From Escherichia phage 235Ecol030PP: a stretch of 64,000 nucleotides of DNA. A program made the translations under genes and the position numbers. Positions 58,129 to 64,000 of this stretch are shown one piece after another. The DNA lies in sequence record PP355091.1, one strand, 5' to 3'. How positions within the stretch are numbered: position 1 is the stretch's first letter; each line of letters opens with the position of its first letter. The notes under the pieces are model-generated. The model was given only the letters and a program-made list of their open reading frames with translations. It was not told where the DNA came from and made no database searches.

Positions 58129-60177
58129 TTATCCTTGAACGAACTTGTAAGGCATGTTTGCAATATCTATGCAAGACGCAATAATTCCAAGAGATGATTC
58201 TACTTTCTGTTTAACATTTGATGAAACAAATGATGCAAAGTCAACTCTATCTTCTATATCACCTGTCATTGTAACCAATTCACCAGTTTCCATTAAATGG
58301 TCTCCGTCATAGATTACCGATTCGGTGAGTTCTTCTGTGGTCATAACTTCAGCTTGAATAAGCTTGTTGTTAGTTCTAACTGTTCCATCGTTGTAAGATG
58401 CATCGGTTATTTTATTAACTTTGACCATTAATCCACGTGGCAAAATGACTTCCATTTCATTTGAAGGCGCTAAACTTCCACCGGGTAAAACAACATTGAC
58501 CTTATCAGCCCCAGTAATAACCCATCCAATTCCAACTAAATTATCGCTAGAATTTACTAGTCCTTCATCAGTTTTATCAATAGAAACACTTAGACGCTTT
58601 TCGTCTGGTAAAACACCTATAGATGAATCAGTCATCCAAGTACCAAAAATATTTGGATATAATGATGTTGACACAAAGTTTCTAAAATAAAAAACTCGAT
58701 TTTTTACCATTGCTTCATATATTGAAGGTAACATTCGTTGTGAACGATACAAAGTAATACCTTTTGGTAATCGTTCACCATTTTTAAAGGCTGAATCTAA
58801 ATTATCAATGGCTTGTTCTATTTCAGGTGCTGTTAAAATACTTGTACGCTCATCTGGATTATATAATCCCAAAAGAGCATTATTTATGTCTACATATCCT
58901 GAACCTACATATTCACGAATTCCGCGTTTTTGCGCTGGCGTGTATTTAGATGAATCTTTATTTTCGACTATAGGATGTAATGACCATCCAGCGGTAAGAG
59001 CATATCCACGTAATTCTCTTCGAATAATCTTTGTTTTTATTGCATTCCAAGAATTTTGTACTAACTCATTTGCAGCATCTTGGTTTAAATGCGAATGTCT
59101 GTTAATATTTCTTTCAAACCAGGCACCTTTATATTTTTCTAAAGTATCATCGACGATAGAAGCAATAGTTTCTAAAGTTTTTATTGAAGTAATAGATTCT
59201 TTTCGTAATTTTTCTAAAGCTTTATTTTTTATTTCTGCATTAATAATGGATTCTTTATCTTCAGGAATTATAGAAGCTTCTCTGAATGCCATCCCAGCTG
59301 TAACACTGCTAAGAGCATTCTCTAGTGCAAATCCTGAAGTAGAAATTACCGTTAATTCATTAGAATCAGAAATTAAAGGCGCGTCCGCTGGTTTATTTAA
59401 TTCTGCCGCTGAAGCCTCAAATTTTTGAAACATCGGTGTTTCAAATCTAGAAGATTCCAATGACTGACTTTGTGCAATTGCTCTACGGGAAATTTTAACT
59501 TTAACGATTACAGCTTGGTCAGAACGTTTATCATTTTCTTGCGCAATAGATGCTGCAATTGCCTCATTTTTAGTTACTTGGGCTCCAGTATCTTTATTGA
59601 TATAAACATCACCGACCTTCGATTCAACTTTAGTAAAGAGCTCGGTACTAATTTCCGGAACTCCTGGAATGTCTTCTAGTGATACATTTTTGCGATGTAT
59701 AAGAATATATGCATACTTTTTATCATAATCCCAGAGTTCCTTAAGAAGGACGTATCTGCCACCTGAACGACTACGGATAAGTCTATCAGCAATAACTTGA
59801 ATTTGTCGAGCTTGACCAGCGGTTTTAGACTTAAGAATACGAAGCATACAGGCATCAATTTTATACTGACGCATCGTTTGCATTGCAACAGTAAAAACTG
59901 AATTGATATAATTAATTGGGCTTGGACCAAGACCTTTCAATTTAGCAATTGAACCTTTAGCGGTTAATGTAAAAGGAACAATATGCATCATTTTATCGCC
60001 CATCTTTAAATCACGATTAGTATCACCTCCAGATGTATAGGTACATAAACGAAAGCCTGGTTGTTCAATTGCGTCATCAACATGAACTGAAAAAATTTGC
60101 GGTATTTTCTTCTTTGGATTTAAGTTTGTAATCGGAAGAGTAGTATCTTCGTCAAATAATTCTGTAATTAGTTCCAT
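58129..60177 (-). CDS. alt: Alt ADP-ribosyltransferase (packaged, injected)
   Basis: 682 aa from second Met (MELITELFDEDTTLPITNL...); track ORF starts one codon earlier at 60180. Confidence 0.93.
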   Translation of the reverse strand: MELITELFDEDTTLPITNLNPKKKIPQIFSVHVDDAIEQPGFRLCTYTSGGDTNRDLKMGDKMMHIVPFTLTAKGSIAKLKGLGPSPINYINSVFTVAMQTMRQYKIDACMLRILKSKTAGQARQIQVIADRLIRSRSGGRYVLLKELWDYDKKYAYILIHRKNVSLEDIPGVPEISTELFTKVESKVGDVYINKDTGAQVTKNEAIAASIAQENDKRSDQAVIVKVKISRRAIAQSQSLESSRFETPMFQKFEASAAELNKPADAPLISDSNELTVISTSGFALENALSSVTAGMAFREASIIPEDKESIINAEIKNKALEKLRKESITSIKTLETIASIVDDTLEKYKGAWFERNINRHSHLNQDAANELVQNSWNAIKTKIIRRELRGYALTAGWSLHPIVENKDSSKYTPAQKRGIREYVGSGYVDINNALLGLYNPDERTSILTAPEIEQAIDNLDSAFKNGERLPKGITLYRSQRMLPSIYEAMVKNRVFYFRNFVSTSLYPNIFGTWMTDSSIGVLPDEKRLSVSIDKTDEGLVNSSDNLVGIGWVITGADKVNVVLPGGSLAPSNEMEVILPRGLMVKVNKITDASYNDGTVRTNNKLIQAEVMTTEELTESVIYDGDHLMETGELVTMTGDIEDRVDFASFVSSNVKQKVESSLGIIASCIDIANMPYKFVQG

Positions 60178-60202
60178 CATATCCTCTCTAGTGTGTTTAT
60201 TC

Positions 60203-60210
60203 TATTTATA
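60203..60210 (-). promoter_or_regulatory. late promoter TATAAATA upstream of alt
   Basis: fwd TATTTATA, about 26 nt upstream of alt ATG. Confidence 0.6.
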
Positions 60211-60218
60211 AAATTAAA

Positions 60219-60230
60219 GGCCCGAAGGCC
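60219..60230 (-). terminator. rho-independent terminator after the 60232..60420 gene
   Basis: minus RNA GGCC-UUCG-GGCC followed by UUUAAUUUU. Confidence 0.6.
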
Positions 60231-60231
60231 T

Positions 60232-60420
60232 TTAGTAATCTAGCGGTAAGAGAGTACGATATATTTCAAACTTTGGTCCTTTTTCATAGGCATCAAATGT
60301 TTCTGTGAATTTATTATAAGCGTATGCATCTACAAATTCGAGAATGACTTGTGATACAGAAGTAGAAACATCTCCACCTTCTTTTTGAGCAATGACAATT
60401 GTTTCTAAGTAAGCTTTCAT
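60232..60420 (-). CDS. hypothetical 62-aa protein between ligase and alt
   Basis: ATG 60420 overlaps ligase stop (ATGA). Confidence 0.6.
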   Translation of the reverse strand: MKAYLETIVIAQKEGGDVSTSVSQVILEFVDAYAYNKFTETFDAYEKGPKFEIYRTLLPLDY

Positions 60421-61880
60421 AGACCAGTTACCTCATGAAAATCACCAAATACATCTTCGAATGTATTAGCTTTAGTTTTATCTTCGCGTAAACGAATCGC
60501 AATCGGAAGAAATAATTTAACGTAATCAGTGCGGCCATCAGATTTTAACCAACCGTTGCATTCGCACTCTAGAATTTTTCCAATATAATAATTTTGGTTT
60601 TCCATAATGCGAGTACGGTCAAGTTCATGCGATTTTACACCGGCTTTATCTTTTAAGCCTGAACCAGCATTTACCTTAATTTTTCCACACTCTGACTCAA
60701 GAATAAATCCACCTGCTTTAGTAGGGTCTTTACGGTGAGGATAAATTCCTACAATTTTTAAATCAACATCAATTACTTCTTTAAATTTATAGAGATTTTT
60801 TGAACGAGCATTTTCCCATAATCCATCGATATTTTTGAGAATAATACCTTCAAGACCTTGGTCAATATACTTTTTATAAATTACCTTAGCTTCATCTAGG
60901 TTATTTACTACCTGGTTTTCAATTAAAATTACTTTATCATAGCCTGATGTCATTTGTTCTAGTTTAGAAAAACGTACATCATACTTTAAACGAAATGCAG
61001 GAAGACCATATATTTCTACTAATGGAACATAATCCCAGACCTGAAACTTCATGCATTGTGCTTCTTTTTCAGAAATGGTTCCCTTTAAAGATTTATTAGC
61101 GATTCCATTAGAAGTAGTACGTGATTCAGCTACTTCGGCGAATTCTTTGGCTTTACTAATTTCAGGATAAGCATCAAAAAGAAAATCTAGGCCTTCTGGC
61201 TCCTTTTTAACTTGCTCATGGTATACCAATTCGCCATCAATTAACACGCCTTCTGGATGAATCTGGCGGGCTTCAGTGGTCATTTTGATTAATTCTTCCT
61301 TAAGAAGATCTAATCCTAGATATTCATTACCGGCTCGTGATAAAAGACGAACATCATCTAATTCATCACCTCTGACTTCGGCAAAGCACCGAGCCCCATC
61401 AGCTTTTAACTGAGCAAAGGCTGGAAATTTGATATTCTTATTAATGCCTTTTTCATCATAAGAACTTGCAAGCATTTGAGGTTGTTCAGGAATTAAACCT
61501 GGCCAAACTTTGTTTGCAATAGATACTGAAGCACCACATTCAAGGTCTCGCATCATCACTCGACGCAAAACTTCAACATCATCTTTTTTACCGTCAGTAA
61601 TATATCCAGTTAATTCCTCAATTGCCACATTTCCAGTCAATTTCCGAGTAGCTAATGTGAATTCAATGAAGTCAAGCATATCGGTAAGAGTCAACATTCC
61701 AAAACTCTGGGTAGCAATACCAGGTTTAGGCCATTTCTTGATATAATACTGCAACCCACGAGAATAAGTCAGACGATATACTCGTTTAAGCAATTCATTA
61801 TCTTTATTCTTTTCAAGAATTGCTTGCTTCTGCTTAGTTGAACCAATAGATGCTATTTCGTTCAGAATTTTAAGAATCAT
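60417..61880 (-). CDS. 30: ATP-dependent DNA ligase, gene 30
   Basis: 487 aa MILKILNEIASIGSTKQKQAILEKNKDNELLKRVY...; adenylation lysine motif KADGAR. Confidence 0.97.
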   Translation of the reverse strand: MILKILNEIASIGSTKQKQAILEKNKDNELLKRVYRLTYSRGLQYYIKKWPKPGIATQSFGMLTLTDMLDFIEFTLATRKLTGNVAIEELTGYITDGKKDDVEVLRRVMMRDLECGASVSIANKVWPGLIPEQPQMLASSYDEKGINKNIKFPAFAQLKADGARCFAEVRGDELDDVRLLSRAGNEYLGLDLLKEELIKMTTEARQIHPEGVLIDGELVYHEQVKKEPEGLDFLFDAYPEISKAKEFAEVAESRTTSNGIANKSLKGTISEKEAQCMKFQVWDYVPLVEIYGLPAFRLKYDVRFSKLEQMTSGYDKVILIENQVVNNLDEAKVIYKKYIDQGLEGIILKNIDGLWENARSKNLYKFKEVIDVDLKIVGIYPHRKDPTKAGGFILESECGKIKVNAGSGLKDKAGVKSHELDRTRIMENQNYYIGKILECECNGWLKSDGRTDYVKLFLPIAIRLREDKTKANTFEDVFGDFHEVTGL

Positions 61881-62146
61881 TATTCATCCTTCAGAGTTTG
61901 GTTTACAGCTCTATTATAAATCAATTCATCATTAAGCTCAGTCAAAGACTTATGATATGTGGTTCTAACTTTATTTCCTTGCATCCAGTGCTTGATATAA
62001 ATGAAACCTTGCTCTACGCATTTTTTAAAAATTCGTTCGTCTTTTTGAGATCGGAATTCTGGATTGCATCTAAAAAATTGATTTACGTGACCGTAATCAC
62101 GTGTAGTATTACCTTCATTTTCATAAATAGTGTGAACAACAAACAT
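61880..62146 (-). CDS. hypothetical protein (30.1-like)
   Basis: 88 aa, ATG overlaps upstream stop. Confidence 0.65.
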   Translation of the reverse strand: MFVVHTIYENEGNTTRDYGHVNQFFRCNPEFRSQKDERIFKKCVEQGFIYIKHWMQGNKVRTTYHKSLTELNDELIYNRAVNQTLKDE

Positions 62147-62985
62147 TAGAATGCTCCTTGGAAAATATTATCACCACAAGTAGGTCTATTATACAAATAC
62201 TCTATACCGCCGGGTTTAATATAGTTCCATGTCTGAAACGGATGTGTCTGATATGGATGATATAGATGATTATAAGGATTAAATCCAGGAGTTCTCCAGG
62301 TAGTGTTCCAAGGAAAAGAATCGTTTTTAATCATCTTTTCAATTACATCTTTTATAGCTTTTTCACTATCAAAACTTTCTTTATTTTCCTTTGGTGAAAA
62401 AAGCTTATTCTCTACATCGTTCCATGTATAAACTCGCTGAGCAGTTTTTGGAATACTGTCACGTTCCCCTCGAGCCATCCAATAAACAGGAACACTTAAT
62501 ATTTCACTCGCGTGATCGCAGTGGTGAGCGAGATCGTCAATATAACAAATTACGTTATATTTCTCTTTTGCCTTTTTGAACAACTCTTCTTTTGAAGAAT
62601 CATGACCACACATCAGTACTTCTGAGAAGGCACCAGGAAAAAGAGCATTCAAATTAAATTGACGATTCAGCAGAGCGTCAATAGAATCACCCAATGCTGT
62701 AACAGCTACAAAATTATAATCTTCTTTTAATTTGTTAATTACACACAGGGCATCTTTATATGGCGACAAGTAACGAATAAAATCTGAACGATTGTATTTT
62801 TCAATTAACTTGACGCCAAGTTCTTCATCACAATTAAAAAGTTTACCAGGAGAAATAAATTTTTCATCTTGGATCATTTTTAAAATATGTTCCAACGGAA
62901 GATTATATTTCTGAGCAAAATAAGGAAGGCCTGATTGCCAGCTTAAACATACTCCATCAATATCAGTTAAAATAGTAGGCTTCAT
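62146..62985 (-). CDS. HAD-superfamily hydrolase (nucleotidase-like) with aromatic-rich C-terminal extension (30.2-like)
   Basis: 279 aa; N-terminal HAD motif I LTDIDGVCLSW (DxDG). Confidence 0.6.
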   Translation of the reverse strand: MKPTILTDIDGVCLSWQSGLPYFAQKYNLPLEHILKMIQDEKFISPGKLFNCDEELGVKLIEKYNRSDFIRYLSPYKDALCVINKLKEDYNFVAVTALGDSIDALLNRQFNLNALFPGAFSEVLMCGHDSSKEELFKKAKEKYNVICYIDDLAHHCDHASEILSVPVYWMARGERDSIPKTAQRVYTWNDVENKLFSPKENKESFDSEKAIKDVIEKMIKNDSFPWNTTWRTPGFNPYNHLYHPYQTHPFQTWNYIKPGGIEYLYNRPTCGDNIFQGAF

Positions 62986-63440
62986 AGAGAGTCTCTTAAT
63001 AGGTTTAACACATCAATAAATTCAGCTTCGGTTAGTATTGTATCATCTTTTGTTAGACCACTAGCCATGCTGTGCTTCAAAACTTTTCCTTTCGAGGCTT
63101 GTAATGCATCACGAAAGCCCTTGTTTTGGATCGCTGCTTCAAAATATGCATTTGTGTATAATTCTTTCCACGCCGGGGAGTATCTTGAAAACGGAACTCC
63201 AAGCCAGAAGAGGGTCCCACGGTCCTGAGCTCTAGCATAAGACCTTCCAGCTTGTTGGGCGGCAAGCCCGGATAACCCAAATATACGACGTTGTTGTTCA
63301 ACATTTTTCACCTTGCACCCTTGGAGGAATCCTTCAAGACCTCCAAATTGAATACCATCCATAACGAAAGGCCATTGGGCGAAATTACTTAATGCACATG
63401 ATGGCCACCTAAAATTGCTTCTAATCTCTAACTCAGACAT
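62982..63440 (-). CDS. NADAR/YbiA-like (DUF1768) domain protein (30.3-like)
   Basis: ATG 63440; segment LSNFAQWPFVMDGIQFGGLEGFLQGCK resembles E. coli YbiA FSNFAAWPIKVDGKTWPTSEHYFQAQK as recalled. Confidence 0.55.
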   Translation of the reverse strand: MSELEIRSNFRWPSCALSNFAQWPFVMDGIQFGGLEGFLQGCKVKNVEQQRRIFGLSGLAAQQAGRSYARAQDRGTLFWLGVPFSRYSPAWKELYTNAYFEAAIQNKGFRDALQASKGKVLKHSMASGLTKDDTILTEAEFIDVLNLLRDSL

Positions 63441-63639
63441 TTTCAATGCTTATAATTTCAACATCAGCCCAATGACCATAGCAAGGAAGACAAAATTCAA
63501 CTGGCCAGTTAGGGTCCTTTTCTAATATAATAGACTCAACTCGTGGTTCTTCATGTTCATCAGTATATGGATTTTTATCTGTTACTTTATATGTGACCTT
63601 AATGTACTGAATTCCAAAAATCTTATTAATTATATTCAT
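63433..63639 (-). CDS. hypothetical protein (30.4-like)
   Basis: 68 aa, ATG start. Confidence 0.55.
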   Translation of the reverse strand: MNIINKIFGIQYIKVTYKVTDKNPYTDEHEEPRVESIILEKDPNWPVEFCLPCYGHWADVEIISIENV

Positions 63640-63833
63640 ACTAATTCCTTTAATCCGTAAATAGGAGATAATTCATCACCCATACGAAGGTCTTCATTTC
63701 CATCTACCCAGGAAACAATATAAGCCTCTTTTATTTGAATACCACTCCATTTAAATGGAGGTAGAACCTTAGAAATTAATCCAGGTATACCAACTCCCTT
63801 TAATTCAACAGTTTGACCTAAAAAGAATTTCAT
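63636..63833 (-). CDS. hypothetical protein (30.5-like)
   Basis: 65 aa, ATG start. Confidence 0.55.
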   Translation of the reverse strand: MKFFLGQTVELKGVGIPGLISKVLPPFKWSGIQIKEAYIVSWVDGNEDLRMGDELSPIYGLKELV

Positions 63834-64000
63834 TAGAACCTCATCTGAAAACCGTGCGATTTAACATTACCGCCATTAATATCAGAACTATTAATTTCAC
63901 GTGCAATTGAAGGGTCAATGTCAATTTCACGATTGAGTTTAGTGATAGCTAAAGTATCGCGCCCATTTACAGTACGAAACTCTAAAGGACAAACCACATC
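63833..64000 (-). CDS. hypothetical protein, C-terminal part only; 5' end beyond window
   Basis: open frame to window end terminating ...NGGNVKSHGFQMRF with TAA overlapping the next ATG (TAATG). Confidence 0.4.
   Translation of the reverse strand, partial: DVVCPLEFRTVNGRDTLAITKLNREIDIDPSIAREINSSDINGGNVKSHGFQMRF

Follow-up and report, generated by a model that had tools for sequence, protein, structure and literature searches.

Gene 30.3 of a T4-like Escherichia phage is the known anti-DarT gene adfN and adjoins a probably separable HAD phosphatase gene

A 64,000-nucleotide stretch of DNA from Escherichia phage 235Ecol030PP (record PP355091.1; the whole stretch is called the window below) carries two adjoining genes, for proteins of 152 and 279 amino acids (aa), which had been proposed from the sequence alone to form a module for reversing ADP-ribosylation. 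The first of these, for the 152-aa protein, corresponds to gene 30.3 of phage T4, which has already been published as adfN, and is thus not new. We favour, with a probability of about 85%, the reading that its product AdfN reverses the marks set by DarT1, that the product of the second gene, 30.2, is a separable phosphatase of the HAD superfamily, and that the two genes lie side by side as members of a shared early-gene cluster and not as an ADP-ribose reversal module. AdfN would then be a small stand-alone enzyme of the NADAR family, made during infection, which hydrolyses the ADP-ribose-guanine bond placed on phage DNA by host DarT1, so that replication is restored. Its neighbour gp30.2 would be a phosphomonoesterase of the HAD type that depends on Mg and carries a helical C1 cap. 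The genes would be co-transcribed yet functionally separable, 30.2 being dispensable in the laboratory, not needed for evasion of DarTG1, and stably placed in evolution beside the DNA ligase gene rather than beside the NADAR gene.

Identification of the 152-aa protein as AdfN

The two open reading frames (ORFs) that had been read at 62146-63440 on the minus strand are real and correspond to T4 genes 30.2 and 30.3. Neither is a chance ORF, since in tblastn searches 1510 phage records contained a match to the 152-aa protein and 1439 a match to the 279-aa protein. The 152-aa protein agrees with T4 gp30.3 at 151 of 152 residues, with no frameshift relative to T4, and the sole difference is the conservative one of M125 here for I125 in T4. 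It matched the Pfam family PF08010 (Phage_30_3) with E=2.2e-70 and 235 bits. The segment SNFAQWPF..DG..EGFLQ..K, which had first suggested a NADAR protein, spans residues 18-43. In an alignment of 48 homologues, reaching down to ~35% identity, E36, H123 and the A-L-S-N-F segment were invariant and K43 was nearly so (at least 90% of the homologues). A profile of the gp30.3 family found E. coli YbiA in the PDB with E=0.006, over the SNF...DG...E-F-Q-K segment. The AlphaFold2 model of the protein had a mean predicted local distance difference test score (pLDDT) of 93 and a predicted template modelling score (pTM) of 0.89. When it was compared with the PDB by Foldseek, the top three matches, which were also the only significant or near-significant ones, were all NADAR folds: YbiA (2b3w; E=1e-4, template modelling score (TM) 0.67), PnNADAR (8bau) and the G. 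lovleyi NADAR (8bat). Membership of the NADAR family, as proposed from the sequence, is accordingly upheld by the Phage_30_3 match, the fold comparison and the conserved E36, K43 and H123. The structure 8bau is a Phytophthora NADAR with ADP-ribose, and 8bat is a DarT-associated NADAR of Geobacter lovleyi.

The window gene is the same gene as T4 adfN (Johannesman et al., Nat Commun 2025, PMC11825919), with the same position between 30.4 and 30.2 and the same E36, K43 and clade-specific His. The inactive AdfN allele of phage RB69 is truncated by a frameshift and has lost the C-terminal helix; the window protein, full-length at 152 aa, keeps this helix, which was modelled at residues 138-151. The NADAR antitoxins of the YbiA/DarG1 type (8bat, 8bau, 2b3w) have the same fold (TM up to 0.67) and share the S-N-F / E-x-F-x-Q-x-x-K motif with AdfN, but identity to them is only 15-19%. 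A further difference lies in the charged catalytic residue of the last strand, which is Glu in YbiA, Asp in BC4488/DarG1 and His in the phage gp30.3 clade (PMC11125620). Unlike the DarG1-type proteins, AdfN lacks an N-terminal extension and is not linked to a DarT toxin, and the T4 protein has no antitoxin activity in uninfected cells (PMC11125620).

Published work gives the function of this protein directly. In vitro, T4 gp30.3 frees guanine in DNA of ADP-ribose and is specific for this base (Toxins 2024, PMC11125620). Gene 30.3 was renamed adfN (anti-DarT factor NADAR) by Johannesman et al. 2025 (PMC11825919), who found that adfN deletion mutants of T4 and T2 form no plaques on DarTG1 hosts, that ectopic AdfN in trans restores plaquing of RB69 on DarTG1, and that purified AdfN strips ADP-ribose from DarT1-modified DNA. 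In the same study the E36A protein was impaired in vivo and inactive in vitro, the K43A protein gave only partial rescue, and AdfN(T4) was fully effective only in T-even infection, where it probably requires a further T-even factor. The de-ADP-ribosylation that had been predicted for the 152-aa protein was therefore already published for a T4 protein one residue different (PMC11825919, PMC11125620). The idea that a phage NADAR undoes DNA ADP-ribosylation of the DarT type was sound, and published work has meanwhile proved it for exactly this gene. T4 30.3 was reportedly included by Schuller et al. in 2023 in a list of phage NADARs. The methods of PMC11125620 describe the T4 NADAR construct as 'gp30.3; residues 1-208', against 152 aa for the T4 and window ORFs; a tag or a different homologue may explain this length.

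Effect of DarTG1 on insertions in 30.3, 30.2 and neighbouring genes

The contribution of the second gene could be judged from genome-wide per-gene transposon data for T4, comparing control with DarTG1 hosts, in the HIDEN-SEQ preprint (10.1101/2025.11.20.689424), from which all insertion values in this section are taken. Both genes were non-essential in K-12, where 72 of 72 TA sites in 30.2 were hit. On DarTG1, insertions in 30.3 fell from a mean of 261.0 to 0.7 (log2 fold change (log2FC) -7.25, q=0), whereas those in 30.2 were essentially unaffected (271.5 to 249.8 over 71 sites; log2FC -0.12, p=0.61, q=1). Insertions in 30.2 were also neutral in minimal medium. Since 30.2 insertions are neutral on DarTG1 and purified AdfN alone acts on DNA, gp30.2 is probably not part of the anti-DarTG1 mechanism. 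The suggestion that the gene pair counters a DarTG-like defence is thus borne out for 30.3, which T4 and T2 need on DarTG1, and is not supported for 30.2.

A true module, in which gp30.2 potentiates AdfN or disposes of the released ADP-ribose, for example by taking the phosphate off ribose-5-phosphate or off a derivative of ADP-ribose, is very improbable on these results. It would agree with the overlap of the 30.3 stop and the 30.2 start as ATGA and with the full effectiveness of AdfN(T4) only in T-even infection. Against it stand the disappearance of 30.3 insertions beside the neutrality of 30.2 insertions, and the activity of AdfN on its own in vitro; the linkage counts on both sides are given further below. 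The more specific idea that gp30.2 is the missing cofactor of AdfN was rejected as a leading explanation for the same neutrality on DarTG1.

Two points weigh against the reading that we favour, in which AdfN acts as a NADAR enzyme and gp30.2 is separable from it. The generic NADAR/DUF1768 hidden Markov model PF08719 gave no match to the window 152-aa protein at E<=1 in the Pfam scan, and a pooled transposon screen may miss mild effects of 30.2. The placement of AdfN in the NADAR superfamily is drawn from its fold and motifs and not from PF08719; one distant homologue (P0083) matched both PF08010 and PF08719.

The only significant gene on DarTG1 besides 30.3 was 30.4 (log2FC -1.79, q=0.014), which was neutral in minimal medium; 30.1, alt, nudE and adfA were unchanged. 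On DarTG2, tk.4 was the only significant gene. Polarity on 30.3 may well account for the depletion of 30.4. The depletion could also mean that 30.4, rather than 30.2, is the T-even factor needed by AdfN. The search for the factor behind full AdfN activity is steered away from gp30.2 by the present data, in which 30.4 alone is affected on DarTG1 besides 30.3. The gene 30.4 is confined to close T-even relatives, in which it always abuts the NADAR gene.

gp30.2 as a probable HAD phosphatase

The 279-aa protein is identical to T4 gp30.2 at 274 of 279 positions and falls into the PHROG family phrog_420 (E=2.9e-93). Scans of gp30.2 against Pfam and NCBIfam gave no meaningful family match, matches to TPK_catalytic and thi_PPkinase being dismissed as noise, and single-sequence and profile searches against PDB sequences returned marginal matches only. 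The protein had been read as a HAD-type hydrolase with a DxDG motif, and this reading proved right, as four motifs are intact and the fold matches are to HAD proteins. Across 37 aligned homologues, with identities down to 35%, motif I is D8-I-D10-G11, with D8 and D10 invariant and followed by G11 and then V or I; T96 is nearly invariant, K132 invariant and the pair D150-D151 nearly invariant. The aromatic-rich cap between motifs I and II is strongly conserved (W16, F43, F50, Y64, F69, Y72 and Y76), and structure comparison showed both a Rossmann-like HAD core fold and the cap. Two Asp residues in motif I of HAD proteins go with phosphatase or mutase chemistry and not with that of dehalogenases.

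Members of the gp30.2 family gave weak Pfam matches to Hydrolase, NT5C and HAD_2, with 5 of 37 weakly matching NT5C (PF06941), and the family profile aligned with mouse deoxyribonucleotidase 2jao over motif I and the cap at a marginal E=0.12. The nearest viral predicted folds beyond its own family are named 5' nucleotidase, phosphoglycolate phosphatase and nucleotidase. With the 5'(3')-deoxyribonucleotidases (NT5C; 3bwv, 2jao, 6g2n) gp30.2 shares the HAD core, the four-helix C1 cap, the motif III Lys, the motif IV DD and a motif I of the form DxDGV followed by an aromatic residue. The likeness in sequence is marginal, however, and gp30.2 is extended by a further helix and by its disordered aromatic tail; unlike the NT5C nucleotidases it constitutes a family of its own outside Pfam. 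Its fold comes closest to those of the 5'(3')-(deoxy)nucleotidases, which makes phosphatase activity on nucleotides or sugar phosphates the most probable. HAD enzymes with a helical C1 cap typically act on small phosphorylated metabolites. We infer that gp30.2 is an active HAD phosphomonoesterase whose substrate is most likely a nucleotide or another small phospho-metabolite.

A second group of similar enzymes comprises T4 Pnk (PseT) and PNKP, which resemble gp30.2 in HAD chemistry of the DxDxT type, in the phage setting, in a link to nucleic-acid-end metabolism and through weak PHROG and fold matches. These phosphatases have no C1 cap and act on polynucleotide ends; in gp30.2, by contrast, the cap is well conserved and a kinase domain is absent.

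When 1.84 billion representative proteins were searched, the phrog_420 family grew to 1329 proteins. Pfam scans of ten members of the widened family, including longer and possibly fused ones, yielded weak HAD matches in two and no functional hint. A literature search on gp30.2 found nothing under that name, and a combined search by gene number found nothing relevant.

Linkage of the HAD, NADAR and DNA ligase genes

Gene order was compared across viral loci collected with the NADAR profile (80 loci, of which 65 had full flanks) and with the HAD profile (72 loci with full flanks), the limit for neighbours in the NADAR loci being 6 kb. A NADAR gene lay upstream on the same strand in 35 of the 72 HAD loci, distant T4-like phages included, and a phrog_420 HAD gene was found within 6 kb in 17 of the 65 NADAR loci; in 48 of these 65 there was none within that distance. 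At least nine T4-like genomes have both genes, ~55-90 kb apart. A conserved linkage of NADAR and HAD genes beyond close relatives is thus not upheld. The same-strand arrangement and the near-identical numbers of records (1510 for NADAR and 1439 for HAD, with the same host spectrum) could be cited in favour of a functional module, but the near-equal counts reflect no more than the wide spread of each gene among T4-like phages, so that co-occurrence at the level of genomes is uninformative, and the absence of a nearby HAD gene from most NADAR loci together with the wide separation of the genes in many genomes speaks against it. Of the proposed ADP-ribosylation-reversal pair, the NADAR and HAD assignments and the NADAR chemistry have stood, and the functional pairing has not, given these linkage counts and the neutrality of 30.2 on DarTG1.

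Relocated NADAR genes were seen in several T4-like genomes of 160-176 kb, of Klebsiella, Yersinia, Erwinia and Aeromonas phage types, at ~55-70 kb from the ligase/HAD cluster (NADAR loci L028, L029, L040, L041, L060, L062, L070 and L079 against HAD loci L144, L120, L156, L098, L114, L101, L109 and L100). They sit among small ORFs without known function, which in L062 are PHROGs 2143, 3355, 2290, 27825 and 2280.

The linkage of the HAD gene to an ATP-dependent DNA ligase gene was much tighter, as the two adjoin in 70 of the 72 HAD loci. Since 30.2 is dispensable for DarTG1 evasion and its stable neighbour is the ligase, the adjacency of 30.3 and 30.2 is best read as co-residence in an early-gene cluster. 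Distant T4-like contigs from the environment show the reverse order, PhoH, ligase, small ORF, HAD and UvsY, with the NADAR gene of the same contig ~85 kb away; in one locus (L157) the ligase, small ORF and HAD genes have overlapping stops and starts. That gp30.2 forms a distinct and widespread HAD family outside Pfam, with DNA ligase as its stable neighbour, is among the most useful new observations made here. The interest that remains is modest; it concerns what this widely conserved phosphatase, with homologous sequences in ~1,400 phage records, does and why its gene keeps beside the ligase gene.

Such linkage raises the possibility that gp30.2 is a partner of the ligase, making ends fit for ligation or protecting them by removing 3'-phosphates, as the HAD domains of PNKP and T4 Pnk do, or clearing a nucleotide by-product or inhibitor of ligation. 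We regard this as unlikely, although the two genes keep together even where their order is turned round in distant phages, with stops and starts that overlap, and although gp30.2 weakly matched a polynucleotide-kinase PHROG (E=0.0036) and polynucleotide kinase/phosphatase proteins were among its viral fold matches. Synteny around core genes is strong in T4-like phages, so the adjacency may simply be inherited; the ligase is essential and 30.2 fully dispensable; and a C1 cap usually limits HAD enzymes to small substrates. To our knowledge, the DNA 3'-phosphatases of the HAD superfamily lack a C1-type cap, which is a further count against a role on DNA ends. A broader version is quite doubtful: either ligase, small ORF and HAD form a conserved unit, in which gp30.2 would have DNA ends, or a nucleotide linked to ligation or repair, as its substrate and its tail would be a lineage-specific recruiting peptide, or 30.4 is the cofactor of AdfN.

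The aromatic tail of gp30.2

The 'unusual aromatic-rich tail' that the sequence-only reading had pointed out in the HAD protein is real and covers approximately residues 223-279. The model was confident for residues 1-195 and disordered over most of the tail, with pLDDT 40-55 over ~223-279 and values below 50 at residues 229-231, 240-260 and 270-279. Some 43 of 100 homologues lack the tail; in the others it is hypervariable and ends in lineage-specific motifs: GIEYLxxQPT in 14 of 100 homologues, and L(R/K)AYY, LLNKVxANDS or ALLGM..LPIITG in other groups. The IEYLY stretch loosely recalls what we take to be T4 sliding-clamp-binding peptides, a likeness on which no claim is built.

These conserved ends of an otherwise disordered tail, together with the lack of a 30.2 phenotype in any tested condition, would fit a catalytically dead or purely structural HAD fold in which the variable tail does the work, for instance by serving as a binding peptide. 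Such a protein is extremely unlikely, as the four catalytic motifs and many cap residues are invariant down to 35% identity and the tail-less homologues indicate that the conserved element is the enzyme core.

Organization of the locus

Over 61800-63700 the window shares 99.1% identity with Escherichia phage EC128 and Yersinia phage fPS-90; this region has matches in 658 phage records, and the genome is a Tequatrovirus (T4-like). According to the ORF list and the T4 annotation, the minus-strand order is 30.5, 30.4, 30.3, 30.2, 30.1, gene 30 (DNA ligase), alt.1 and alt. The features of the locus are collected in Table 1.

Table 1. Coordinates of genes, catalytic residues and domains around adfN in the window
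Feature	Position	Strand	Basis or remark
Gene 30.3 / adfN, NADAR-family DNA (guanine) ADP-ribosylglycohydrolase, 152 aa from ATG	62982..63440	(-)	Pfam, T4 identity, model, Foldseek, publications
E36 codon, catalytic Glu in EGFLQ motif	63333..63335	(-)	GAA; invariant in 48 homologues
K43 codon, catalytic Lys	63312..63314	(-)	AAG; conserved in >=90% of homologues
H123 codon, last-strand His marking the phage gp30.3 clade	63072..63074	(-)	Invariant; end of modelled strand 120-122
30.3', 75-aa ORF in another frame inside 30.3	63077..63304	(-)	ORF list; T4 annotation gives internal translation in a different reading frame
ATGA overlap of 30.3 stop and 30.2 start, four bases	62982..62985	(-)	Direct sequence reading; tight packing usual in T4
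Gene 30.2, HAD-superfamily phosphatase-like core and disordered tail, 279 aa	62146..62985	(-)	
gp30.2 HAD core with four-helix C1 cap, residues 1-195	62401..62985	(-)	pLDDT 91-98 over residues 1-190
gp30.2 motif I, D8xD10	62956-62964	(-)	37-homologue alignment
gp30.2 motif II, T96	62698-62700	(-)	37-homologue alignment
gp30.2 motif III, K132	62590-62592	(-)	37-homologue alignment
gp30.2 motif IV, D150-D151	62533-62538	(-)	37-homologue alignment
gp30.2 linker helix and aromatic/Pro-rich C-terminal tail, residues 196-279	62149..62400	(-)	Model and homologue comparison
Gene 30.1 (DUF3045), between 30.2 and ligase	61880..62146	(-)	Pfam PF11243, E=1.4e-63
Gene 30, ATP-dependent DNA ligase	60417..61880	(-)	ORF and T4 annotation; adjoins the HAD gene in 70/72 loci
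Gene 30.4, 68 aa, directly upstream of adfN, overlaps adfN start by 8 nt	63433..63639	(-)	phrog_2042

A scan of 60000-64000 for promoters and terminators gave results at chance level, with no signal separating 30.2 from 30.3. The pair had been described as lying near alt, and alt is indeed found ~2 kb downstream, at 58129-60180, with the DNA ligase gene and gene 30.1 in between. The mechanical ORF of 30.3 reaches back to a TTG at 63446, and the 152-aa length follows from the ATG start.
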